From Thermodesulfobacteriota bacterium (GTDB lineage: Bacteria; Desulfobacterota; Desulfarculia; JACQYL01), in the NCBI GenBank assembly GCA_963675595.2, contig CAXXLZ010000002.1, forward strand, positions 2,432,001-2,496,000: a stretch of 64,000 nt of DNA. The letters run 5' to 3'. The first letter of the stretch is position 1. The number at the start of each line of letters is the position of its first letter. Below the pieces are notes generated by a model. The model was not told the origin of the DNA, searched no databases, and worked only from the letters and a program-made list of their open reading frames with translations. The position numbers were made by a program, and so were the translations under genes. Positions 7,693 through 51,223 of the stretch are shown here, piece by piece.

Positions 7693-7782
7693 GAGGAGGA
7701 CTTTCGGAAAAGGCCTCACCGCCTTCGGCGGAGAGGCTGAGTTTCCTCACTAATTCCCAACGTTCCTTACATGTGCTGAATC
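7693..7782 (+). repeat. REP/MITE-like intergenic repeat, family A
   Basis: GGAGGACTTTCG, CCTCACCGCCTTCGGCGGAGAGG and CTAATTCCCAACGTTCCTTACA modules recur at other loci. Confidence 0.75.
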
Positions 7783-8025
7783 GGCTGAGATGCTCTCCAA
7801 GTCCGGCTTCGTCCCAAAGGGGACAACGTACGGATCAGGAGGCCTTGGGGAACGACGTTCCCCAGGGGGGGACCAATATGAAAATTCCCGCCGTGAACGA
7901 TGACGACAATCCAGCGGACCGTCGCGGTTTCCCGCATATCGGTCCGTTGCGTAAGGGCGCGGTTTCCCGGGAGAGGACCGTGCCCGCCGACAAATCCGCC
8001 CGGCAGGTCCGTCACACGGCTGCCG

Positions 8026-38552: not shown

Positions 38553-38693
38553 GATTCAGCAGATGTAAGAAACGTTAGGAATTAGTGAGGAAACCTGATT
38601 TCGCCCGCAGCCTTTCCGCCGGAGGCGGTAAGGCCTGTCCAACGTGCTTTGGGAGGGGGCTCGGGGGAGGACTTTCCCGAAAGTCCTCCCCCG
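38553..38693 (-). repeat. REP/MITE-like repeat, family A
   Basis: Reverse complement of the 7.7-kb modules plus palindrome CGGGGGAGGACTTT-CCCG-AAAGTCCTCCCCCG. Confidence 0.8.
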
Positions 38694-38744
38694 CTAGCCG
38701 GCCTCACCTTCCCCCGAGCGCATCGATCAATGCTGTCGGCCCGT

Positions 38745-40515: not shown

Positions 40516-42195
40516 ATGTCCGTAGTCCGACTGGCCGCCATGGCGACCCTCATATGTGCGCTTGTCGCCGCTTGTGCCCCGCGTCCGACCGGGGACGTCG
40601 GCACGCGGCCTACGGAGATGGGCCTGCTGGAAGACCCCGGCGGCCTCATGGACATCGGCCAAGCCGCCGCCCCGGACCGCGCCGGCGATTACCGCATGGA
40701 GCCGGGCAACCGCCTCTCCCTGGGCTTTTCCCTCTCCACCCTGTGGGTGCGCCTAGCCCTGGAACAAACGCCGCCCACCGGCTCCTGGGTGCTGGAGCTG
40801 CCCTCGCCCTGGCTGGATCGAGTGGAGCTCTATCTGCCCCGTCCCCATGGAGGCCGTCTCAGGTTGGCCACCGGCCTGCTGCTGCCGCCGGCACGGGCGG
40901 ACGCCGACTGCTTCGTGCTGACCGCCCCGGAGGACACTCCCCGGCACGGCTACGCCTATCTGCGCCTCAGCGCCCGCTTGTCCCTCAACGCGGCCCTCAA
41001 CATCCGGCCCAAAGCGGCGCTGGAAGGGCACGCGGTGCGGCGAGCCTATCTGCTGGGCGCCCTGTACGGCATCATGGGGGCCATGGTCATGGTCAACCTC
41101 CTGGTGTTCATCACCACCCGCGACCGGGCCTACCTGTATTATGTGCTCTATTTGTTCAGCATGAGCTTCCATCAGTTCTGCCTGCAGGGTCAGGTGCTGC
41201 TGCTGCCCACCTCGGCCTGGCCCCTGATCCCGCAACTCAGCCTGGGGATCACCTCGGTCATGTTCTTTTTCGGGGCCGCCTTTTGTCGCTCCTTCCTGCA
41301 CGTGCGGGTGAACGCCCCCATGTGCGCCCGCCTGCTCACCGGGGTGCAGGCGGCCGCGGTGGTGCTCATGGTGCTCGTCCTGGGGGGGCGCGTTTTTTGG
41401 GGTACCTGGCTGGCGCACTCCATGGCCCTGGTGGGGCCCCTGGTGGGCATTGCCGCCGGTTTTTTCGCCCTGGCCCGGGGCTTTCGGCCGGCCCGGTTCT
41501 ACCTGATCGCCTGGTTGGTGCTCCTGTTGGGGGCCATGGCCTGGGGAGCGTGGAGCATGGGACGGCATCTGCCCGTTCCCCTGGCGCTGGCCGATCGGGT
41601 AGCCACCATGCAGCGCGAGCGCCTGGTGCTGGCCCGACGGGAGCGGCGATACCGCCAAATGAGTGTCACCGACGAACTCACCGGGCTGTACAACGCGCGT
41701 TATTTCTGGGGTTGTTTGGACACGGAGATCGACCACGCCCTGGCCACCGGCCGTCCCTTGGGTTTGGTCCTGCTGGACGTGGACGACTTCAAGCTCTTCA
41801 ACGACACCCACGGCCACTTGGAGGGCGACCGAGTGCTGGCCGAGCTGGGCCGGCTGCTGTGGAACGCCGTGCGCCCCACGGACTCGCCCTGCCGTTACGG
41901 GGGCGAGGAGTTCGCCCTGGTGCTGCCCGACTCCGGAGATGAGGCCCTGCACCAGGTGGCCGAACGGGTACGGGCGACCCTGGCCTCCAGACCTTTCCCC
42001 CTGCAGACCGGCCGGGTGGTCACGGTAACCGCCAGCCTGGGCACCGCCCAGTTCCGGCCCGGCGACGACGCCAAGACCCTGATGGGGCGAGCCGACCGAG
42101 CCCTCTACCAAGCCAAGGCCCGAGGCAAGAACTGCACCGTCGTGGCGGATGAAGACCACCCCCCGCGACCCGACTTCACGATCCCGCCCGCATAG
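40516..42195 (+). CDS. 7TMR-DISM sensor diguanylate cyclase
   Basis: LWVRL and WLDRVELY (DISM2-like), TM region, TDELTGLYN, NDTHGHLEGD, RYGGEEF. Confidence 0.88.
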   Translation: MSVVRLAAMATLICALVAACAPRPTGDVGTRPTEMGLLEDPGGLMDIGQAAAPDRAGDYRMEPGNRLSLGFSLSTLWVRLALEQTPPTGSWVLELPSPWLDRVELYLPRPHGGRLRLATGLLLPPARADADCFVLTAPEDTPRHGYAYLRLSARLSLNAALNIRPKAALEGHAVRRAYLLGALYGIMGAMVMVNLLVFITTRDRAYLYYVLYLFSMSFHQFCLQGQVLLLPTSAWPLIPQLSLGITSVMFFFGAAFCRSFLHVRVNAPMCARLLTGVQAAAVVLMVLVLGGRVFWGTWLAHSMALVGPLVGIAAGFFALARGFRPARFYLIAWLVLLLGAMAWGAWSMGRHLPVPLALADRVATMQRERLVLARRERRYRQMSVTDELTGLYNARYFWGCLDTEIDHALATGRPLGLVLLDVDDFKLFNDTHGHLEGDRVLAELGRLLWNAVRPTDSPCRYGGEEFALVLPDSGDEALHQVAERVRATLASRPFPLQTGRVVTVTASLGTAQFRPGDDAKTLMGRADRALYQAKARGKNCTVVADEDHPPRPDFTIPPA

Positions 42196-42296
42196 GCGCC
42201 CGCCGGACCACCCATGTTCACTGGGGGAAATACCATGTTGGCCTCAGGTGCTCGATCGTTATGATGGAGCATCACCCAAACAGAAAGGAGACCAAC

Positions 42297-43385
42297 ATGG
42301 TAGCAACGAAAGTAACAGAATTGGCCAAGTTTTTGGAGCTGGATATCGACCGTGATTTCCACGTCGGGATCGACGTACACAAAAAGAGCTACCACGTGGC
42401 CGTGCTTCGCAGCGACGGCGAGGTGAAGACTTTTGTGTCCTCGGCCTCTCCGGAGGCCATCGTGGCCATGTTGCTCCCCCACTTGAGGCGCATCCGAGCC
42501 GTAGCCTACGAAGCGGGGCCCACCGGCTTCGGCCTTGCGCGCACTTTGGCCAAAGCCGGGTTCAGCGTGATCGTGGTGGCGCCGAGTCGGGTCCCTAGGC
42601 CGGTGACTGCGGGGGCCAAGACCGACCGCCTGGATTGCATGCGGTTGGCGGACCATGCCGCCCGAGGGATATTGAAGTCCATCGCCGTTCCCACGGAGGA
42701 AGAGGAGGCCGAACGCAGCGTAATTCGCCGTCGGCACGATCTGGCCGACGGCACTCGACGCGTTAAGCAGAGAATTCAATCCCTTCTGCTGTTTCACGGT
42801 GTGGAGGCGCCTCCCGGGCTCAATCATTGGGGCCGAAGCGCTGTGGCGCAACTTCGAAAGCTTCGTCTGCCGAAGGAGGCCAAAGCGACGCTGCTCAGCT
42901 TGCTCCGTGAGTTGAATTTCCTCACAAAGGAAAAAGCCTTCATGGAGGAAAGGACTTCCAGTGTGTGCGAGAAACCTGAACACTTTGAGGAAATGCGATG
43001 CCTTCGAAGCGTCCCCGGGGTGGGTCCCATCACAGCGGCTACCTTCCTCCTGGAATTGTTTCGCCCGAGTCGGTTCCATCGGGTGGAGGAAGTGACCAGC
43101 TATCTGGGACTCGCACCGTTGGTAAGACAAAGCGGAGAGCGGAAATCTCGAGTGGCGCTTCCTCCCGTGGGTCAGACGCGACTGCGGAGTCTGTTGGTGG
43201 AGGCGGCCTGGACGTGGAAGTCCAGGGATCCGGCCATTGATTCGCATTATCGAAAACTCCTGTCGCGAACGGGCCTTCCACAAAAGGCCATTTGTGCGTT
43301 GGCACGGAAACTGGCCGTTGTTCTATGGCGATTGACCATGGAAAAACGGACCTATGAATTTCGTCTCCAAGCGGACCAAGCATGA
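42297..43385 (+). CDS. IS110-family DEDD transposase/recombinase
   Basis: GIDVHK, YEAG, KTDRLD; SVPGVGP, YLGLAPLVRQSG, ALARKL; AGGAG RBS. Confidence 0.95.
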   Translation: MVATKVTELAKFLELDIDRDFHVGIDVHKKSYHVAVLRSDGEVKTFVSSASPEAIVAMLLPHLRRIRAVAYEAGPTGFGLARTLAKAGFSVIVVAPSRVPRPVTAGAKTDRLDCMRLADHAARGILKSIAVPTEEEEAERSVIRRRHDLADGTRRVKQRIQSLLLFHGVEAPPGLNHWGRSAVAQLRKLRLPKEAKATLLSLLRELNFLTKEKAFMEERTSSVCEKPEHFEEMRCLRSVPGVGPITAATFLLELFRPSRFHRVEEVTSYLGLAPLVRQSGERKSRVALPPVGQTRLRSLLVEAAWTWKSRDPAIDSHYRKLLSRTGLPQKAICALARKLAVVLWRLTMEKRTYEFRLQADQA

Positions 43386-43601
43386 GCCGGTTAGGACTTG
43401 TTTAGGAGAACCCAACCGGCTCGGGACCCATACTTGAGGTGGGTCCCGAGCCTCAAGCCGGGAGAAAAAAGCGGAGACGGCCGCGATAAAGTTTGGCTGC
43501 ATCGGTAGCGCTGGGGAAATGGCGGCATCTTCGCTTCTACATCGCATGTGTACTTGGCGCTTCGGGCGCGAATAGGAAACGGTTATCCAATTCCGGCTTG
43601 A
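43384..43601 (+). ncRNA. Predicted bridge/seek RNA of IS copy 1
   Basis: Structured region with AAAGTTT and CTGGGGAAA (target matches) and GTACTT and ATAGGAAA (donor matches) flanking inner hairpins. Confidence 0.75.
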
Positions 43602-43620
43602 CTTGAGGCCACATAGGAAA

Positions 43621-43691
43621 CTTTCGAGAAAGTTACCCCCAGTCCCCTTTCCAAGCTCTTCAAGAACGCCTCACCGCCTTCGGCGGAGAGG
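43621..43691 (+). repeat. Family A repeat interrupted by IS copy 1 (left part at 42221-42230)
   Basis: Rejoined site CTGGGGGAAA|CTTTCGAGAAAGTTACCCCCAG...CCTCACCGCCTTCGGCGGAGAGG. Confidence 0.85.
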
Positions 43692-43718
43692 AGAGAGATA
43701 AGCAGGCCTTGGGCGCTA

Positions 43719-43979
43719 TTATAGCTTTTGCAGCAAAAATTCCTCCATCTTGCTTTTATTAATGGCGATACGAGGGGGCACCCATTCGTTATTCAAAAAG
43801 ACATTTGTCGAACCTTTGAATTTATGGGCATGCGGTTTGGCCTCTTCCGAATCGAGAGTGTATATCTTCACGTCCAGTCTTCCCTCGAATTTTTCCCGCA
43901 TGTCTTCGGCTACACCTATAGCCCTTCCGCATGCGATTCAACGGGCATTGCCGCTGTGAAACACGATCAACTCAGCCAT
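43719..43979 (-). CDS. Small thioredoxin-like selenoprotein (UxxC), 86 aa
   Basis: AAGGAGG RBS; MAELIVFHSGNAR-TGA-IACGRAIG in frame with the 60-aa ORF; hairpin immediately after the TGA. Confidence 0.82.
43897..43937 (-). promoter_or_regulatory. Bacterial SECIS-like hairpin
   Basis: CGCATG..GGCTA-TAGGTG-TAGCC..CATGCG directly 3' of the UGA at 43940-43938. Confidence 0.72.
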
Positions 43980-44112
43980 TTTCCGTTCCTCCTTATTTCC
44001 GGTTCGGTAGCTGTTGGAGGTCGAATGGATTCACTGTATTCTTCCTTGTTCATAGCACGTCCGGCCGACATTTTCCTGCGAGTTGATTTGACCACCGCTC
44101 TATAGAGATTCA

Positions 44113-44189
44113 CTGTGGGAAACTTTCGGGAACGTTTCCCACAGTTCCTCTTCCAAGCTCTTCAAGAAGGCCTCACCGCCTTCGGCGGA
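44113..44189 (+). repeat. Uninterrupted family A repeat (empty IS target-like site)
   Basis: CTGTGGGAAACTTTCGGGAACGTTTCCCACAG...CAAGCTCTTCAAGAAGGCCTCACCGCCTTCGGCGG. Confidence 0.85.
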
Positions 44190-44237
44190 ATGAAATGCGG
44201 CTTGTGCGCCGAAAAACCATCCAGAGGGATCGGTCGG

Positions 44238-44987
44238 CTAAACGATGCCGCCGTTCACATAGATTGTCTGGCCGTTCACCCAGCCGGCATCCGGACCGAC
44301 CAGAAACGCCACGGCATCGGCGATGTCCTCAGGCCGACCGAGCCGCTCCAACGGCGGCATCTTGGCCAATTGTTCGACCTGTTCGTCCGTTTTGTTTTTC
44401 AGAAAAAGGTCGGTTGCCGTTGGTCCGGGTGCGACGGCGTTCACCGTAACGTTTCGGCCGCGCAATTCCTTGGCGAAGATATTCGTCAGCGTCGCCACGG
44501 CGGATTTCGTGGCCGCGTACACCGAATAGCCGGGCAAGCCGAGCTTGCGCACGCTGGAAGAAAGATTGACGATTCGCCCGCCGTCGCGCAGTTTTCCGGC
44601 TGCAACCCGCAGTGTGTTGAATGTGCCCTTGAAATTGACGGCGACAATTTTGTCGAAAAGCGCATCATCCGTATCGGCCAGAGAAATCAGGCCCGGCTGC
44701 ATGATTCCGGCGTTATTCACGAGAATATCAACACCGCCGAAAAGCGCGGCGGTTTGGTCGAACATGGCCGCCACCTGCCCGGGCACCGAAACATCGGCCT
44801 GGATCGCCACTGCTCGGCCTGGTCCGGCTTCGATCTCTCGCACTACGACATCGGCTGCATCGGCCCGACCCGCATAGTTTACAATTACGGCGATGCCGTC
44901 GGCGGCCAGACGTTTGGCAATGGCTGCGCCGATTCCGCGCGATGATCCTGTGACAATGGCCACTTTGGTTTCCGTTGAAGTCTTCAT
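44238..44987 (-). CDS. SDR family oxidoreductase
   Basis: TGSSRGIG, NNAG, YAATK. Confidence 0.93.
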   Translation of the reverse strand: MKTSTETKVAIVTGSSRGIGAAIAKRLAADGIAVIVNYAGRADAADVVVREIEAGPGRAVAIQADVSVPGQVAAMFDQTAALFGGVDILVNNAGIMQPGLISLADTDDALFDKIVAVNFKGTFNTLRVAAGKLRDGGRIVNLSSSVRKLGLPGYSVYAATKSAVATLTNIFAKELRGRNVTVNAVAPGPTATDLFLKNKTDEQVEQLAKMPPLERLGRPEDIADAVAFLVGPDAGWVNGQTIYVNGGIV

Positions 44988-45096
44988 GGCAGCCTCCTTT
45001 GTTCTGTTTGAATGCTTTATACTTCACCGACAATATGGTACCGAGTTTTGAATTTCGGTAGACGCATAAACGGCATGACGGCTATACTGTTTTGGT

Positions 45097-46017
45097 ATGA
45101 CCGTATTCGACGACCTCTCTTTGGTTCGGGCTTTCGTCTGCATCGTGGAAAACGGCGGCATTTCCGCTGCGGCCCGCAAGCTCCGGCGAACTCAACCGAC
45201 GCTGAGCCGTTATTTGCGCACACTGGAAGATCGCTGCGGCACCGTATTGCTGTATCGGGATACGCACCGCATACGCCTCTCGTCCGCCGGCCATCAATTC
45301 TTGGAGGACGCGCGATCCCTCCTGGCATTGGCGGAAGAAGCCGAACAACGCCTGCGCAACGACCAGGCAACCCTTCAGGGTAATATCCGCCTGTTCGCGA
45401 CCATCGACTTCGGCCAAAGTGTCGTCAGCCGCATGATTACCGGTTTTATTCAGGCCAACCCCGCCGTAACCATCGACCTGGCTTATTCCAACCGCCCTTT
45501 GCATATGCTCGAAGAAGGATGCGATGTCGGCATCGTCGCGGGCGCCGTCACGGATGATACGGTTGTCGCATGCTCCATCGGCCCCATTAAACGCTATCTT
45601 GTCGCCTCTCCAGCGCTCCTGAGAACGCATAAAGCCGTTTCCAGCCCCATGGAACTTCAATCCTGGCCGTGGTTGACGTTGTCCGGCGCGCAATTCGGCG
45701 GTGGGCGGGAAGTAACGCTTTATTCGTCGGAACAAGAAGAACAGAAGTTGACCGTATCACCGGTCATGACATCCGAAGGTGTGAGCAGTCTGCGTGAAGC
45801 GGTACGTTTGGGGCTTGGGATCGCCGTTTTACCGGAATGGCTGATTGAGGAGGACATTGTTTCGGGCCGGCTTATCAGGGTTCTGCCTGAGTGGCGAAGC
45901 GGAAACCTACCGGCCCACATCGTTTACCCGGTGCAGCGACGCTTGCCGTCGCGCGTCCGAACTTTCATTGACTTTGCGACCGCTTATATGACCACGGTTT
46001 TGCAGTCAGGTAGGTGA
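45097..46017 (+). CDS. LysR family regulator, divergent from the SDR gene
   Basis: HTH ISAAARKLRRTQPTLSRYLRTLE; LysR substrate domain. Confidence 0.93.
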   Translation: MTVFDDLSLVRAFVCIVENGGISAAARKLRRTQPTLSRYLRTLEDRCGTVLLYRDTHRIRLSSAGHQFLEDARSLLALAEEAEQRLRNDQATLQGNIRLFATIDFGQSVVSRMITGFIQANPAVTIDLAYSNRPLHMLEEGCDVGIVAGAVTDDTVVACSIGPIKRYLVASPALLRTHKAVSSPMELQSWPWLTLSGAQFGGGREVTLYSSEQEEQKLTVSPVMTSEGVSSLREAVRLGLGIAVLPEWLIEEDIVSGRLIRVLPEWRSGNLPAHIVYPVQRRLPSRVRTFIDFATAYMTTVLQSGR

Positions 46018-46236
46018 ATCCAACTGTTTCAAGACAAAGAAACCAAAAGAGGCCTGACCCTTTCGGCTTGGCTTGAAAAGAGGTTTGCAGCCCTTCAACG
46101 GAAGGAGTATTTATTAGGTAGATCTAGAGCAAGAGCCTCGTACCGGTTTGAAAGGAGTCACGGCGTGGGTTCCTTCGGTTTCGAGGCGGTTTCCGTCCCC
46201 ATGAGGACGGAGCCCATCCCGTGAGCTTCTTTGCCC

Positions 46237-46368
46237 ATTCAGAAGAGGTAAGGAACGTTGGAAATGGGCGAGCAGCCCTTCTTTCCCCCCGGGCTCTCCG
46301 CTGAATGCGGTGAGGCCTGTCCAACGTGCAAGGTGGCTCGGGGGAGGACTTTCCCGAAAGTCCTCCCC
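46237..46368 (-). repeat. REP/MITE-like repeat, family A
   Basis: Similar to 38553-38693 (GTAAGGAACGTT, GAGGCCTGTCCAACGTGC, GGGGAGGACTTT-CCCG-AAAGTCCTCCCC). Confidence 0.8.
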
Positions 46369-46428
46369 TGTGAAGGATTCCCTCGTTTCGTCTTTGCTGC
46401 GTCCCTCCGGGAAGAAAGGATGTGGAAA

Positions 46429-48012
46429 ATGAGGATTCGGCTTGCGGTATTCGCTCTTGTCCTGATTTTCGCGGCTGTTCTCTGTTCCTGCGACTCCGGT
46501 ACCAAAACGGACGGCGTTCCCGGCGACAACAAGGTCCCGGCCTCCGTCCTAGCCCTGGCCTCCTCCGTGACCGAGGACCTGGAGGCCCGGGGGTACGAGG
46601 TGGTGCGAGGCTACATGCAGCTCTTCACCATGGACGATTGCGCCCTGGCCATCGCCAAGACGGGCCAGTGCTTCGGCAACAACCCCACCGGACCTTATGT
46701 CTTTCCCGTGGTTCCCGCCTGGTCCGAGGAATACATCGACCCCACCACCCTCAACGTCTTCGGGGAAAACGCGGACGGGTACCTGACCATTCGGCGCTTC
46801 GACCCGCGGGAAGCGACCCTGGTCTTCGGCGTCATGCCGCCGGCGGCCCGCTACTTCGGCTTGCAGACCTACCAGTACACCCGCGAGGGCACGGTGGATA
46901 CCGACAACGAGGTGTATCAGTTGGTGCTGAACACCTTCCCCTTCATGCTGGACCAGTTCTTCGGCCCCGCACCCAACGGGCGGCTCCTTTCTTTCGCCAG
47001 CATCAGCAACAACAATAACAACGCGGTGTTCGAGCGCCGGGCCGGCTCCTTTTTCGATCAAGTGCGGTTCTTCGTCGTCACTCCGGACCAGGCCATGGAC
47101 ACGGCCGTGCGCGCGGCCCTCGCCCGGGCCGAGGTTTCCGACAGCGACATCGTCACCGAATCCATCGCCTCTCCGGTAACCCTGGGCCTGGACAAGGAAG
47201 CGGACGACCTCATCACCGTGATACGCTACGCCCTGCCGGACGACGAGGAAGCCGGAGAGTTGTGGCGCCATGACCTTCCCCTGGTGGTATTACGCGTGCG
47301 GGACCGCGGCGACCGGGCTCCGGAACCCTGGCCCGCTTTCGAGCACCCCCAGGAACGCTTCGACACGAGCGAACTCTATCTTTCAACCGACTTGAATGCC
47401 TTGAACAACAACGTTCGTGCCGCCTGGGGCCTCGACCCGGCCCCCAGCCCGCCCGGCGTGGCCGACCGCATGCTGGACCTTCAACGGGCCTACCCCTTCG
47501 ATCTGGTGGGACCGGACTGCATCCGGAACACCATGAACTGCCTGGCCGACACCCAGGACACCTCCTATGCCGGCACCGCCAACGTGTATCTGGAAAACGA
47601 CGCCGGCGACCAGTTCCTTTATGCCGTTGTCGGCACCCTGGGCACGGAAACGGGGAACGCCACCTACACCAGCCTGTCCGTGTACCGGGCCGCCGTGGTC
47701 ATGGGCGTGGCCAACGTGGACGACGGACAACTGCTGCAATCCCAGTCCTACTTTCCTCAAGAGCCCAACTCTTTCAACAACCAGGACAAGTTCTACCTCT
47801 GGTACTTCGGCCGGACCTGCGCGGCCGCGCCCGAAGCAATCTGCACCGAGATCAACGAGGACCAGATTCCCTTGGGCGAACCCATGAAGTTGGCCCTCCG
47901 GAACTACATCCGGCCCGGCGATGTCCGGGGGCCCAACACCGATCCGCCCGACGATCCCAAAGGCGTCAGTCCCCTGCTGCCGGCCTGGGTCACCGCCATT
48001 CCCCTGCCCTGA
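46429..48012 (+). CDS. Hypothetical lipoprotein
   Basis: Lipobox LCSC, strong GC3 bias, no family recognised. Confidence 0.75.
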   Translation: MRIRLAVFALVLIFAAVLCSCDSGTKTDGVPGDNKVPASVLALASSVTEDLEARGYEVVRGYMQLFTMDDCALAIAKTGQCFGNNPTGPYVFPVVPAWSEEYIDPTTLNVFGENADGYLTIRRFDPREATLVFGVMPPAARYFGLQTYQYTREGTVDTDNEVYQLVLNTFPFMLDQFFGPAPNGRLLSFASISNNNNNAVFERRAGSFFDQVRFFVVTPDQAMDTAVRAALARAEVSDSDIVTESIASPVTLGLDKEADDLITVIRYALPDDEEAGELWRHDLPLVVLRVRDRGDRAPEPWPAFEHPQERFDTSELYLSTDLNALNNNVRAAWGLDPAPSPPGVADRMLDLQRAYPFDLVGPDCIRNTMNCLADTQDTSYAGTANVYLENDAGDQFLYAVVGTLGTETGNATYTSLSVYRAAVVMGVANVDDGQLLQSQSYFPQEPNSFNNQDKFYLWYFGRTCAAAPEAICTEINEDQIPLGEPMKLALRNYIRPGDVRGPNTDPPDDPKGVSPLLPAWVTAIPLP

Positions 48013-48104
48013 CGCGGTATGAAATGCCTCTGGGGAAATACCATGTTGGCCTCAGGTGCTCGATCGTTATGATGGAGCATCACCCAAACAGAAAGGAGAC
48101 CAAC

Positions 48105-49193
48105 ATGGTAGCAACGAAAGTAACAGAATTGGCCAAGTTTTTGGAGCTGGATATCGACCGTGATTTCCACGTCGGGATCGACGTACACAAAAAGAGCTAC
48201 CACGTGGCCGTGCTTCGCAGCGACGGCGAGGTGAAGACTTTTGTGTCCTCGGCCTCTCCGGAGGCCATCGTGGCCATGTTGCTCCCCCACTTGAGGCGCA
48301 TCCGAGCCGTAGCCTACGAAGCGGGGCCCACCGGCTTCGGCCTTGCGCGCACTTTGGCCAAAGCCGGGTTCAGCGTGATCGTGGTGGCGCCGAGTCGGGT
48401 CCCTAGGCCGGTGACTGCGGGGGCCAAGACCGACCGCCTGGATTGCATGCGGTTGGCGGACCATGCCGCCCGAGGGATATTGAAGTCCATCGCCGTTCCC
48501 ACGGAGGAAGAGGAGGCCGAACGCAGCGTAATTCGCCGTCGGCACGATCTGGCCGACGGCACTCGACGCGTTAAGCAGAGAATTCAATCCCTTCTGCTGT
48601 TTCACGGTGTGGAGGCGCCTCCCGGGCTCAATCATTGGGGCCGAAGCGCTGTGGCGCAACTTCGAAAGCTTCGTCTGCCGAAGGAGGCCAAAGCGACGCT
48701 GCTCAGCTTGCTCCGTGAGTTGAATTTCCTCACAAAGGAAAAAGCCTTCATGGAGGAAAGGACTTCCAGTGTGTGCGAGAAACCTGAACACTTTGAGGAA
48801 ATGCGATGCCTTCGAAGCGTCCCCGGGGTGGGTCCCATCACAGCGGCTACCTTCCTCCTGGAATTGTTTCGCCCGAGTCGGTTCCATCGGGTGGAGGAAG
48901 TGACCAGCTATCTGGGACTCGCACCGTTGGTAAGACAAAGCGGAGAGCGGAAATCTCGAGTGGCGCTTCCTCCCGTGGGTCAGACGCGACTGCGGAGTCT
49001 GTTGGTGGAGGCGGCCTGGACGTGGAAGTCCAGGGATCCGGCCATTGATTCGCATTATCGAAAACTCCTGTCGCGAACGGGCCTTCCACAAAAGGCCATT
49101 TGTGCGTTGGCACGGAAACTGGCCGTTGTTCTATGGCGATTGACCATGGAAAAACGGACCTATGAATTTCGTCTCCAAGCGGACCAAGCATGA
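48105..49193 (+). CDS. IS110-family DEDD transposase/recombinase
   Basis: Same protein as copy 1. Confidence 0.95.
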   Translation: MVATKVTELAKFLELDIDRDFHVGIDVHKKSYHVAVLRSDGEVKTFVSSASPEAIVAMLLPHLRRIRAVAYEAGPTGFGLARTLAKAGFSVIVVAPSRVPRPVTAGAKTDRLDCMRLADHAARGILKSIAVPTEEEEAERSVIRRRHDLADGTRRVKQRIQSLLLFHGVEAPPGLNHWGRSAVAQLRKLRLPKEAKATLLSLLRELNFLTKEKAFMEERTSSVCEKPEHFEEMRCLRSVPGVGPITAATFLLELFRPSRFHRVEEVTSYLGLAPLVRQSGERKSRVALPPVGQTRLRSLLVEAAWTWKSRDPAIDSHYRKLLSRTGLPQKAICALARKLAVVLWRLTMEKRTYEFRLQADQA

Positions 49194-49409
49194 GCCGGTT
49201 AGGACTTGTTTAGGAGAACCCAACCGGCTCGGGACCCATACTTGAGGTGGGTCCCGAGCCTCAAGCCGGGAGAAAAAAGCGGAGACGGCCGCGATAAAGT
49301 TTGGCTGCATCGGTAGCGCTGGGGAAATGGCGGCATCTTCGCTTCTACATCGCATGTGTACTTGGCGCTTCGGGCGCGAATAGGAAACGGTTATCCAATT
49401 CCGGCTTGA
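49192..49409 (+). ncRNA. Predicted bridge/seek RNA of IS copy 2
   Basis: Same sequence as 43384-43601. Confidence 0.75.
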
Positions 49410-49428
49410 CTTGAGGCCACATAGGAAA

Positions 49429-49497
49429 CTTTCGAGAAAGTCTCCCCCAGTCCCCTTCAAAGCTCTTCAAGAAGCCTCACCGCCTTCGGCGGAGAGG
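49429..49497 (+). repeat. Family A repeat interrupted by IS copy 2 (left part at 48030-48038)
   Basis: Rejoined site CTGGGGAAA|CTTTCGAGAAAGTCTCCCCCAG...CCTCACCGCCTTCGGCGGAGAGG. Confidence 0.85.
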
Positions 49498-49728
49498 GGG
49501 AAGAGGTGTGCGCCTTGCGTAGTAGAAATCCCGCGACTGCAGAAGGAGCACAAAAGGCATCGGGAGGACTCCGTGAACATGGATCCTGTTTCCGATAGAC
49601 ACTATAAGGTCGACGACGAAAGAGTCTTTCGCCCCCGATCCCCATCCCATTGAATACCCCAGTCCGATTGTGTATCCTGAAATACCATCGTAACGCGGAA
49701 AAAATGGAATAAAGAGGAGTTTCTCGCC

Positions 49729-49941
49729 GTGAAGAACGAATACACCGCTGTGCTCAAACAGGAAGGTGGTTGGTGGCTGGGATGGATCGAGGAAGTCCCC
49801 GGGGTTAATTGCCGGGAGAAGACCTATGAAGAATTAAAGGAAACATTGGCGGTAACACTGAAGGAGGCCCTGGAGTTCAATCGGCAAGACGCCTTGTCCG
49901 CCGCCGGCACCGGCTACAGCGAAGAAAAAATCGCCGTATGA
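49729..49941 (+). CDS. hicB: HicB-like antitoxin (short form)
   Basis: YTAVLKQEGGWWLGWIEEVPGVNC...LKEALE; GAGGAG RBS. Confidence 0.85.
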   Translation: MKNEYTAVLKQEGGWWLGWIEEVPGVNCREKTYEELKETLAVTLKEALEFNRQDALSAAGTGYSEEKIAV

Positions 49942-50131
49942 GGGAAAGGGACTTCTCCAGTATCCGCACAGCCGAGGATGTACTCTCTTGAGGGAAGGGG
50001 CAAAGCATTCATGGTGGTGTAATCCCGCCCTGAATAAGCGCTCGGCGATCCCCCGACATTCCGAGATCGTAGACATCCTTGCAAACAAAATCTGCAAAGA
50101 CCTTGGTGTCCCGCCCGTCAAACAGCCATAA
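49938..50131 (+). pseudogene. hicA: Frameshifted HicA toxin
   Basis: ATG overlapping the hicB stop is out of frame with GCTLLREGAKHSWWCNP...IPRHSEI...ICKDLGVP. Confidence 0.75.
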
Positions 50132-50221: not shown

Positions 50222-51223
50222 TCATTCTGAGCTTAGTGGGGGCAGCTTCCTTTTCCAAGGTGGCGGTTGAAGTAAAATACTACCGTTGTTCACAACAAAC
50301 CTTCTTTTTAATGCCGTGCTTACATTTCTAAGACTAACCAGCATATTTCTGTAGTTAAGGTGAGCCTCCCTGATGGACATAGGCGGCGCTTCACCATATC
50401 TATGCTTTATTGCCTTCTTATGGCAAGAAAATAGTCGAATAGTATCACCATCTATTGATTTTTCAGTTTCTTCATTTATCGTATTAGCCAGAGCAGCCAG
50501 ATCATGATGTCTCGGTATACTCAAGCCATACTGAGCAATTATAAGTTTTAAGGCTTGCTCCAAAGCAAAATGCATTTCCCAATAGGCAGTCGAGACACGC
50601 GACTCTTCGAGACTTGCAATATCCCTCACAGCCCTTGTAAGATTATCCAAAATGATGGAACGGGCTCTTCTCAATTCCGTTTGATTGAGATCAGCGGTCA
50701 ATAGATTAATATGGATCGTCCGGGTATCAGATGCTACATCAACCATATCCTCTCTTATAGCTACAAGCGCTTCCTTGTCTATTTTGGACAAATTTGGAGG
50801 ACTTTGAAACCAAGTCATAATATTCTGATCTTTTAGCCTATCGTTACTAAAGTGAAACCACCTTCTATTTGGACCATCCATTTCTCCCGCCAACATGAAA
50901 GGAACAATAAATTCAAAAGGAGTATTATAAATAAGAACTAAACCTCTACTGTCTTGCGATATTTTCGACTTCATTGCAGCGCCATATCGTTCAATATACC
51001 ACCTCTCGATTTTTTCAACGACTGCGCTAAACCAGGACATCTTTAGTATATCCTTCTTATCACAACCCTTAGTCTCTATAATGCAGAAATCCACGAAGAG
51101 TGCGACAGCCGCGTCAGGTCTGTCTTTTAAAGGAACGCTTTGATCGGCAAAAGTTTCGTCGAATATAGGCAATTGATATTCAAGAAACTCATAAATATCA
51201 GCAAATTCAGGATGGGTGGTCAT
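50222..51223 (-). CDS. Low-GC hypothetical protein with C-terminal HEPN-like domain
   Basis: HFALEQALKLII...IPRHHDLAALA...HRYG; AT-rich. Confidence 0.65.
   Translation of the reverse strand: MTTHPEFADIYEFLEYQLPIFDETFADQSVPLKDRPDAAVALFVDFCIIETKGCDKKDILKMSWFSAVVEKIERWYIERYGAAMKSKISQDSRGLVLIYNTPFEFIVPFMLAGEMDGPNRRWFHFSNDRLKDQNIMTWFQSPPNLSKIDKEALVAIREDMVDVASDTRTIHINLLTADLNQTELRRARSIILDNLTRAVRDIASLEESRVSTAYWEMHFALEQALKLIIAQYGLSIPRHHDLAALANTINEETEKSIDGDTIRLFSCHKKAIKHRYGEAPPMSIREAHLNYRNMLVSLRNVSTALKRRFVVNNGSILLQPPPWKRKLPPLSSE

Follow-up and report, generated by a model that had tools for sequence, protein, structure and literature searches.

Insertion sequences (IS) of the IS110 family have been shown experimentally to be RNA-guided (PMC11187229, PMC11208160). 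ISPa11, an IS1111-family element of Pseudomonas aeruginosa, is described as encoding a seekRNA downstream of its transposase gene (tnp), as having a fixed insertion point within a chromosomal REP, and as having the match to the top strand of its target 5′ of the match to the bottom strand (PMC11187229). IS621 of E. coli (IS110 group) has a DEDD and Tnp recombinase and is reported in REP at 144 of 173 mapped sites (PMC11208160); its bridge RNA comprises a target loop and a donor loop, and donor and target have a short core in common. For ISPpu9 and ISPpu10 of Pseudomonas putida, labelled “IS110-family” in a sense that covers both the IS110 and the IS1111 groups, multiple copies inside REP sequences have been described (PMC12288879, 10.64898/2026.03.19.712850). 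Features of this kind are seen or predicted in the element presented here, which occurs twice in the window, the 64,000-nt stretch of DNA that was analysed. It is very probably an active or recently active IS1111-group IS that carries its own guide for a palindromic repeat occurring in many, mostly intergenic, copies.

The element and its assignment to the IS1111 group

The following features delimit the element:

42231-43620 (+): IS copy 1, TACCATG...CACATAGG plus a copy of the AAA core; skipped exactly (1,390 nt) in a contig of a related organism
48039-49428 (+): IS copy 2, same sequence as copy 1
42231-42302 (+): left end, of which the first 15 nt are able to pair with the tnp ribosome-binding site and start codon at 42288-42302 (I2, 15 nt, 93%)
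42238-42265 (+): promoter-like site TTGGCC-16-TATGAT within the left end
42239-42249 (+): left subterminal inverted repeat, pairing with 43601-43611 (I18, 11 nt, 91%)
42297-43385 (+): transposase, 362 aa, with DEDD RuvC-like and Transposase_20 domains and the motif GLAPLVRQSG
43601-43620 (+): right end, with the subterminal inverted repeat followed by AGG and then AAA

The two 1,390-bp copies are identical, and the identity between them spans 42224-43633 and 48032-49441, the first difference lying in the right flank. Eight full copies were found genome-wide, of which seven are 100% identical, while the eighth (99.2%) carries 11 differences, at 43082-43140 and 43459-43469, outside both RNA loops described below. 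Among 30 related species genomes no near-identical IS was found, and relatives of ~70% identity were present in two of them. A natural empty site is available for copy 1: a contig of run X4, from a related organism with a flank ~91% identical, joins 42226 to 43617 and thereby skips exactly 1,390 nt.

The transposase matches PF01548 and PF02371 (E 1.4e-15 and 4.3e-22), the NCBIfam model NF033542 “IS110 family RNA-guided transposase” (228.5 bits, cut-off 140) and, in the PDB, the transposases of ISCro4 and IS621. Candidate DEDD residues (D26, E72, D110 and D113) and the SG motif were read by eye. A DEDD transposase places the element in the IS110 family, as do site-specific insertion, a short core at both junctions and the lack of a conventional target-site duplication. 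Within this family it is a member of the IS1111 group: the C-terminal domain has the GL-P----S(T)G motif as GLAPLVRQSG, and a long non-coding region of 235 nt lies downstream of tnp, compared to 66 nt at the left end. IS1111 elements are described as usually having subterminal inverted repeats of 11-13 bp with asymmetric terminal extensions of 7 and 3 bp (PMC11187229); here, with AAA counted on the left, the extensions beyond ATGTTGGCCTCA and TGAGGCCACAT read, by inspection, AAATACC (7 nt) and AGG (3 nt). The order of the guide matches is also that of the IS1111 group, the top-strand complement (43488-43494) standing 5′ of the bottom-strand complement (43511-43519) with an overlap on AAA. By inspection, TTGACT (43599-43604) would stand 17 nt from the left-end TACCAT in a circle junction, suggesting a junction promoter in the circular form; a −35 TTGACA of this putative promoter is kept in relative L001.

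The target repeat and the predicted guide RNA

The target sites in the window belong to one repeat family:

42221-42230 (+): left half of target hairpin 1, CTGGGGGAAA, 26 nt past the stop of a GGDEF gene (inverted repeat I17)
43621-43696 (+): rest of repeat 1, with hairpin loop and 3′ arm, linker and tail hairpin CCTCACCGCCTTCGGCGGAGAGG
44113-44189 (+): uninterrupted repeat copy, arm TGGGAAACTTT, one mismatch to the 11-mer, at −7
46340-46368 (no strand assigned): GGAGGAC-class hairpin of the same family, in reverse orientation, unoccupied
48030-48038 (+): left half of target hairpin 2, CTGGGGAAA, the one 13-mer in the genome that matches both guide halves perfectly
49429-49497 (+): rest of repeat 2, with loop, 3′ arm, linker and tail

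Each window copy interrupts a hairpin in its 5′ arm, at GGGGAAA/CTTT (the slash marks the insertion point). Excising TACCATG...CACATAGGAAA restores CTGGGGGAAA/CTTTCGAGAAAGTTACCCCCAG and CTGGGGAAA/CTTTCGAGAAAGTCTCCCCCAG, which fold into DNA hairpins (−13.0 and −7.7 kcal/mol), the split arms corresponding to inverted repeat I17. A linker and the CCTCACCGCCTTCGGCGG tail follow both occupied hairpins and likewise the uninterrupted hairpin at 44113-44189, which reads TGTGGGAAA/CTTT. Variants of the type GGAGGACTTT occur at 7695, 38666, 46343 and 57012, together with an unrelated one at 50796, all without IS. The first-pass annotation had placed both copies at the same base of a repeated hairpin that is restored on IS removal, with a tail common to occupied and uninterrupted copies and with the GGAGGACTTT variants (7.7k, 38.7k, 46.3k and 57.0k) unoccupied, and it is borne out on all these points. 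It had also given GGAAA as present at both IS ends, which is true of the two window copies; genome-wide, AAA is what the right IS end shares with the end of the left flank in 8/8 copies. The shared core is thus AAA and not GGAAA, since GAAAA is found in the copy at C2:3243946.

The repeat, a two-hairpin module restricted to this lineage, has more than 120 copies. Genome-wide, 124 tail motifs (at most one mismatch) and 146 hairpin-plus-tail elements were counted. The hairpin centre falls inside an ORF of at least 150 aa in 55 of the 146, compared to 87% of the genome lying in such ORFs, a statistic that uses crude ORF calls and not gene predictions. Like REP and REPIN sequences, the repeats are short imperfect palindromes, of high copy number and mostly extragenic. 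Neither the hairpin nor the tail occurs within 1.5 kb, in either direction, of any of the genome’s three PF01797 (Y1_Tnp) matches; since no RAYT gene is flanked by the repeat, we refer to it as REP-like, and not as REP or REPIN. It may be undescribed, the sole and hence weak basis for this being that no paper was found to match a 12-nt stretch of its hairpin.

That two copies sit at the same hairpin base is best explained by a guide RNA, carried by the element itself, that matches the arm. The 235-nt right non-coding end would encode this bridge/seekRNA, for which two loops are predicted:

43483-43534 (+): predicted target-binding loop, from the fold and the matches to the target flanks
43550-43579 (+): predicted donor-binding loop, from matches to the IS’s own ends; invariant in seven relatives

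In the target loop, AAAGUUU on the 5′ side (43488-43494) is complementary to the top strand AAA/CTTT (core and right flank), as is CUGGGGAAA on the 3′ side (43511-43519) to left flank and core on the bottom strand; read as DNA, AAAGTTT at 43488 is antisense, while CTGGGGAAA at 43511 is sense to left flank and core. An inner hairpin (43496-43509) closes the predicted internal loop on whose opposite sides the two halves lie, and both matches arise together in 3 of 200,000 shuffles. IS1111 seekRNAs are described with the same order of matches, top strand 5′ of bottom strand, and with the matches overlapping (PMC11187229). The donor loop has its inner hairpin at 43556-43569; its GUACUU (43550-43555) on the 5′ side fits AAA/TACC of the left end at all but one of six positions, the mismatch being at the third core base and recurring in relatives, and AUAGGAAA (43572-43579) corresponds to right end and core. 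This loop is unchanged in seven relatives, whose IS ends are conserved too. The 3′ halves of both loops have one extra base fitting the product junction. An Rfam scan of 41500-50000 (E up to 1) returned no family for the IS RNA or the repeat. According to this model, one internal loop would pair with both strands of the target GGGGAAA/CTTT, its matches overlapping on the AAA core, the second loop would pair with the element’s own joined ends, and the circular form would recombine at the core; production of the RNA, its binding and the circular intermediate are putative steps. No circle junction was seen among the contigs, which do not reveal rare forms.

Loops and flanks vary together across relatives, in the case of the left guide in four and of the right guide in three. 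In copies from a Desulfovibrionaceae metagenome-assembled genome (MAG; 50% aa identity) the flanks YYCAAAA/CTTT go with the loops CUCCAAAAU and AAAGUUUU; in relative G007 the left flank CTAAAAAAA and the right flank GCAATAG go with GAUAAAAAAAG and CUAUAGCU; in relative G015 the left flank TTAAAAAAA goes with loop GGUAAAAAAAU and the right flank GCTCTAG with CUAGAGCUU. The scaffold stems still pair through compensatory changes, at 9 of 20 pairs (four sequences) and 8 of 19 pairs (seven sequences). A decayed sister copy on C1, a dead element with the guide CCUGCAAA, has a single genomic match as predicted target, outside the repeats, and the insertion sites in G007 and G015 are A-rich without an obvious hairpin. 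Both findings weaken the idea that this IS clade always targets the present repeat family.

Site occupancy and competing explanations

Of the 8 IS copies, five interrupt the repeat at exactly the base seen in the window, a sixth occupies a variant hairpin, and the remaining two are in non-repeat DNA. A perfect left half GGGGAAA is found in 7/8 copies and a perfect right half CTTT in 5/8. Occupancy falls steeply with mismatches to the 11-mer GGGGAAA/CTTT, from 5/24 sites (no mismatch) to 1/247 (one), 1/2283 (two) and 1/16867 (three), numbers that are small given 8 copies, and from an 11-mer consensus that was partly learned from occupied sites but is contained in the IS-internal guide. Among the 146 tail-bearing repeats, 5 of the 11 with a perfect arm are occupied versus 0 of the other 135 (hypergeometric ~9e-7). 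Where both arms match, either may be used (tail-distal three times, tail-proximal twice). The guide fits a minor repeat subclass, represented by 11 of the 146 tail-bearing elements and by 14 hairpin loci in all. The 11-mer resides mainly in one or both arms of this minor subclass of the hairpin-linker-hairpin repeat; in the proposed scheme, as it is thus offered by a multicopy, mostly intergenic repeat, independent insertions would arise at the same base. The subclasses GGAGGAC, GGGGAAC and GGAAGAC, which have neither the left-guide match nor the AAA core, remain empty.

Two copies are at sites with a poor right half, AACT (1/4 matching) and CCTT (3/4). The second of these sites is that of the 99.2% copy, and an altered guide as its cause was rejected, as the differences of this copy fall outside the loops. 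Since 1 of 35 CCTT sites is occupied, the rules for the right half are not fully explained.

The first-pass annotation had named as a check whether occupancy tracks the match and had inferred that the guide is tuned to a multicopy intergenic repeat; the mismatch series shows that occupancy does so, and the inference is supported by the internal loop, the covariation and the occupancy. Insertions in GGAGGA variants or in unrelated sequence, which it had named as evidence to the contrary, gave 0 cases for the former, and the two non-repeat copies both keep the GGGGAAA half-site. For the empty 44113 copy it had noted a mismatch to the guide: there is indeed one mismatch to the 11-mer, but with 19 of 24 perfect sites empty a mismatch is not needed to explain the vacancy. 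“Safe-harbour” targeting is likewise to be read as a tendency and not a rule, the repeat being mostly intergenic but one IS copy cutting off the last 53 codons of an ORF of 900+ aa; ISPpu10 has been said to steer its integration towards intergenic “safe zones” (PMC12288879, 10.64898/2026.03.19.712850).

An unlikely alternative is that recognition by the transposase requires the repeat’s DNA to form a hairpin or cruciform, alone or with sequence, so that RNA pairing alone does not decide the site. Six of the 8 targets fold as DNA hairpins (−7.7 to −16.7 kcal/mol), of the seven copies of the MAG relative five are inserted 3′ of a hairpin, at a distance of 12-17 nt, and ISPpu10 is reported to need a stem-loop 5′ of its target (10.64898/2026.03.19.712850). 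Perfect 11-mers are occupied at 0/5 sites outside hairpins versus 5/19 in hairpin arms, a difference that is not significant. Against it, two of the 8 copies are in non-hairpin DNA (−4.8 and −2.8 kcal/mol), and hairpins of this family that lack the sequence match are empty in all 135 cases, so structure alone does not attract the IS.

It is very improbable that the protein alone recognizes the site, the transposase reading GGGGAAACTTT directly and the IS-internal motifs being coincidental or structural. AAAGUUU is common to the window IS, the decayed C1 fragment and MAG L001, and this set on its own would allow for a conserved scaffold; in G007 and G015, however, both loop halves vary with the flanks, coincidence is opposed by the shuffle result, and the family is RNA-guided in experiments (PMC11187229, PMC11208160). 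Non-independent insertions, whether through duplication or recombination of IS plus flank or through repeats derived from the IS (footprints, MITE), are scarcely credible. The 55-61-nt flanks of the copies at C2:1357374 and C2:3698756 are nearly identical, which would fit such an origin, but the similarity of the flanks does not extend beyond the length of a repeat (at most 168 nt adjoining the IS) and hence falls short of kb-scale duplication, and segmental duplication was rejected as the source of the common flanks. Moreover, more than 120 repeat copies are without any IS sequence, repeat and IS ends have no sequence in common beyond the core, and in the run X4 relative site 1 is empty while its IS contig abuts a flank resembling site 2. 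Guidance by an IS-borne RNA thus accounts best for the distribution.

Implications and comparison with known systems

A more specific proposal, which we consider rather doubtful, is that the left half of the guide selects among stem-variant subclasses of the repeat, while the right half reads ACTTT, which is loop-proximal in the commonest subclasses. If true, re-tuning a few left-guide bases would shift an IS lineage between sub-sites of hairpin repeats (a hairpin arm here; in the Desulfovibrionaceae MAG relative, the linker immediately 3′ of a comparable hairpin), and the gain of a multicopy target would have triggered the burst to seven identical copies, in contrast to the dead sister copy on C1 with its one genomic match. 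In a stronger form, the compensatory stem variants of the repeat would partly represent escape from RNA-guided insertion.

Irrespective of this, the locus is a well-resolved natural case of predicted bridge/seekRNA targeting outside Gammaproteobacteria. Among what it offers are a predicted guide with a 3-nt, A-only core, a target within the arm of a hairpin, and naturally occurring examples of on-target insertions, half-site insertions and an empty site; it may also provide a compact IS1111-type system for probing the effects of DNA structure and half-sites on targeting. For genome annotation, it explains IS copies at identical positions in repeats and describes a lineage-restricted repeat family of more than 120 copies.

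The first-pass annotation had compared the element to IS621. This is apt as regards REP targeting in the IS110 family, but the layout is that of IS1111, with the RNA 3′ of tnp as in ISPa11. IS621 encodes its RNA in the left end, ahead of tnp, and has the strand matches in the opposite order; its core is the 2-nt CT, versus AAA (at most 3 nt) here, its subterminal repeats are very short, unlike those of the window IS, and its transposase is only weakly similar (E 3.9e-10, confined to the C-terminal half). The extra base in the 3′ loop halves recalls the handshake guides described in PMC11208158. The two non-repeat copies with a poor right half resemble the half-match off-targets reported for IS621 (10.64898/2026.08.31.748434), which come from in vitro and editing data and serve as an analogy for two natural insertions. 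Whereas the hairpin reportedly needed by ISPpu10 is 5′ of its site, the window IS cuts inside the hairpin arm, and two of its 8 copies have no hairpin. Compared by description with ISPa11, the element belongs to another host lineage and uses an unrelated repeat, and its target is a two-hairpin module of which only a minor stem-variant subclass matches. The case is a new example of an already known behaviour and leaves the knowledge of the mechanism unchanged.

Insertion sites in the window and the repeat they interrupt

Two copies of the 1,390-bp IS (TACCATG...CACATAGGAAA) lie in the window, and comparison of both elements revealed that 42224-43633 is identical to 48032-49441.

42231-43620: IS copy 1
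43731-43979, minus strand: 83-aa ORF between both IS copies
44113-44189: uninterrupted copy of the repeat
48039-49428: IS copy 2

According to folding, excision of copy 1 restores CTGGGGGAAA|CTTTCGAGAAAGTTACCCCCAG (the vertical bar marks the insertion point), a DNA hairpin of -13.0 kcal/mol, and excision of copy 2 restores CTGGGGAAA|CTTTCGAGAAAGTCTCCCCCAG, a DNA hairpin of -7.7 kcal/mol. A linker and then a second hairpin, CCTCACCGCCTTCGGCGG(A/T)GAGG, come after each of them, as in the uninterrupted copy, and the GGAGGACTTT-type hairpins at 7695, 38666, 46343 and 57012 are all without IS. The first-pass annotation had described the sites in this way (restored hairpins, common tail, unoccupied GGAGGACTTT-type hairpins), which was borne out by the sequence check.

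Boundaries were checked by comparing contigs of four public sequencing runs with 41900-43900. The flank in run X4 differs from the window at 25 of 286 letters and therefore belongs to a related organism. One contig of this run joins 42226 to 43617, with exactly 1,390 nt missing and four letters fitting either side, and represents a natural empty site 1. The IS contig from this run adjoins a flank similar to that on the left of site 2. It follows that the two window copies inserted separately and do not form a composite transposon.

The 83-aa ORF between the copies contains an in-frame TGA at codon 14 (U-x-x-C context) and a stable hairpin about 11 nt 3' of it (z = -3.4), and may therefore be a selenoprotein gene, a candidate with a SECIS-like element; no Pfam match was found for this ORF.

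The repeat is a REP-like, lineage-restricted, two-hairpin repeat, whose tail motif (at most one mismatch) occurs 124 times in the source genome, 14 times in one same-family genome, and 0 to 2 times per genome in the other 29 relatives searched. Stem differences between its subclasses are compensatory changes. In 55 of 146 cases the hairpin centre falls within an ORF of at least 150 aa, compared to 87% of the genome. Based on crude ORF calls, 53/146 elements have a co-oriented ORF (at least 200 aa) ending within 120 nt upstream, and only 18/146 have a convergent stop after the tail; from this orientation bias we would guess that the repeat acts at transcript 3' ends. No RAYT gene linked to the repeat was found in the genome, Rfam returned no match for it, and a literature search limited to its hairpin stretch retrieved nothing.

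The repeat is modular, as a third conserved module (...GAGGCTGAG..TTTCCTCACTAATTCC.AACGT...) follows the tail hairpin in some copies, in both orientations (7695-7800 and 38570-38700 in the window). A second hairpin family, CGGGGAAACCTTTT..AAAAGGTTTCCCCG, with its own flanks (TTCACAGGGTAGG / GACCCCATCCAAAA), is present at about 14 loci of the source genome (G000), including C1:514980, C1:608983, C2:196025 and C2:4187384; most loci have no tail match within 95 nt, and all arms with GGGGAAACCTT are unoccupied.

Genome-wide copies, targets and occupancy

In the assembly (6.79 Mb, 3 contigs) eight full IS copies were identified, seven at 100% and one at 99.2% identity, together with a 69-bp solo left end and the 3' half of a sister element (81.6% identity). 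Five of the eight reconstructed targets are GGGGGAAA|CTTTC..GAAAG within a tail-bearing repeat, one is a variant hairpin without tail (CCGGGAAAA|CCTTTTCAAAAGG), one (GATGGGGAAA|CCTTTGG) falls within a long ORF encoding Flg_new and fn3 domains, 160 nt short of its end, and one is non-hairpin DNA (CATGGGGAAA|AACTCTCC). Similarity between flanks of different copies is repeat-sized only. Where both arms match, either is usable (tail-distal, n=3; tail-adjacent, n=2).

The 99.2% copy (G000:C2:2980052-2981442) truncates the 3' end of the long Flg_new/fn3 ORF, and carries eight clustered substitutions close to the SG motif in the transposase gene tnp (window-equivalent 43082-43140) plus three changes at 43459-43469. 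Runs X4, X8 and X11 contain this same variant with the same 11 differences, which suggests that the seven identical copies arose in a recent burst of a derived variant.

The decayed sister (G000:C1:339447-339997; locus L018:447-997, minus strand) shares the right-guide motif of the IS and has another left guide (CCUGCAAAU), and the genome contains a single match to the target predicted for it. The solo left end (G000:C2:3813470-3813538, 97% identical) ends precisely at the start codon of tnp, and its left flank ends in CACGAAA.

Occupancy by number of mismatches to the target 11-mer GGGGAAACTTT, counted on the genome with IS copies cut out
0 mismatches: 24 sites, 5 occupied
1 mismatch: 247 sites, 1 occupied
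2 mismatches: 2,283 sites, 1 occupied
3 mismatches: 16,867 sites, 1 occupied

The 24 perfect sites comprise 19 hairpin arms (14 loci), three junctions between repeat and spacer in a CRISPR-like array, and two others. A perfect arm is present in 11 of 146 non-redundant hairpin-plus-tail elements, and five of these 11 are occupied versus 0/135 of the remainder (hypergeometric probability about 9e-7). Arms belong mainly to the classes AGGACTTTC (n=27), GGAACTTTT (n=24), AAGACTTTC (n=13) and GAAACTTTC (n=12), so the subclass of the repeat that the IS fits is a minor one. With CCTT in place of CTTT, 1/35 sites is occupied. The empty copy at 44113, with one mismatch at -7, had been explained as empty because mismatched; no special explanation is needed, since 19 of the 24 perfect sites are also empty.

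The CRISPR-like array lies at G000:C2, about 4368550-4371850, where a 29-mer that ends in GGGGGAAAC recurs at multiples of 61 nt. Three of its junctions match the target 11-mer by chance, and all three are empty.

The predicted guide RNA and its covariation with flanks

The right non-coding end of the IS contains AAAGTTT (43488-43494), antisense to AAA|CTTT, and CTGGGGAAA (43511-43519), which is sense to the left flank and the core (AAA). In the predicted fold these face each other across a single internal loop, which hairpin GCUGCAUCGGUAGC closes, and shuffling the region 200,000 times reproduced both matches together only 3 times. In a second predicted loop GUACUU fits AAA|TAC of the left end at 5/6, and the other side, AUAGGAAA, equals the right end plus core; these sides flank GGCGCUUCGGGCGC.

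Across relatives the scaffold, the donor loop and the IS ends (TACCATGTTGGCC... and ...CCACATAGGAAA) are kept, and the target loop varies together with the flanks.

Flanks and target-loop halves in relatives (G007 and G015, genomes of related species)
Desulfovibrionaceae MAG (50% aa identity, 7 copies): flanks YYCAAAA|CTTT; loop halves CUCCAAAAU / AAAGUUUU
Gammaproteobacteria MAG: left flank TTGTAAA|; loop half UCGUAAAU
G007: flanks CTAAAAAAA|...|GCAATAG; loop halves GAUAAAAAAAG / CUAUAGCU
G015 contig C55: flank TTAAAAAAA|; loop half GGUAAAAAAAU
G015 contig C23: flank |GCTCTAG; loop half CUAGAGCUU

RNAalifold recovered a conserved architecture of outer stem, internal loop and inner hairpin, with compensatory changes at 9/20 pairs (4 sequences) and 8/19 pairs (7 sequences). 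Loop-flank covariation and compensatory pairs are the strongest support for the putative RNA-guide mechanism short of experiment. The first-pass interpretation of an IS-borne guide tuned to a multicopy palindromic repeat is supported, with corrections: the element has the IS1111 rather than the IS621 layout, the shared core is AAA and not GGAAA, a minor subclass alone of the repeat fits the guide, the mismatch argument for 44113 is superfluous, and safe-harbour targeting holds as a tendency, since one copy truncates an ORF.

In the Desulfovibrionaceae MAG (loci L001-L004 and L013) the 50%-identical relative is inserted 12-17 nt 3' of hairpins, and therefore in the linker, not the arm; these hairpins resemble those of the source genome (GGGG..CTTTTT..AAAAAG..CCCC, then CCCCTTTYCAAAA|CTTT).

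Element identity and comparison with known systems

The 362-aa transposase contains PF01548 and PF02371, passes the NCBIfam model "IS110 family RNA-guided transposase", and is weakly matched by the ISCro4 and IS621 transposase structures. It carries GLAPLVRQSG, and the IS has subterminal inverted repeats, terminal extensions of 7 nt and 3 nt (with AAA assigned to the left) and non-coding ends of 66 nt (left) and 235 nt (right), the features by which the IS1111 group is told apart from the IS110 group (PMC11187229; PMC11208160).

Pairing is possible between the first 15 nt of the IS and the tnp RBS and start codon (93% over 15 nt; 42231-42302 and 48039-48110), so that the start would be hidden in read-through transcripts from the upstream gene. 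At a circle junction, right-end TTGACT would sit 17 nt from left-end TACCAT, forming a promoter for transcripts without the 5' arm.

In the IS the top-strand guide match precedes the bottom-strand one and both overlap in the target, as reported for IS1111 seekRNAs and in the reverse order of IS110-type elements (PMC11187229). Two insertions lie off the repeat and match the left half perfectly, a pattern that fits the "half-match" insertion idea (10.64898/2026.08.31.748434). A hairpin requirement like that reported for ISPpu10 (10.64898/2026.03.19.712850) may or may not apply to the IS, as six of its eight targets fold as hairpins and two do not. REP targeting is already established in this family for IS621, ISPpu9, ISPpu10 and the IS1111-type ISPa11 (PMC11208160, PMC12288879, PMC11187229). 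The IS makes a tidy natural system and comes as no surprise.
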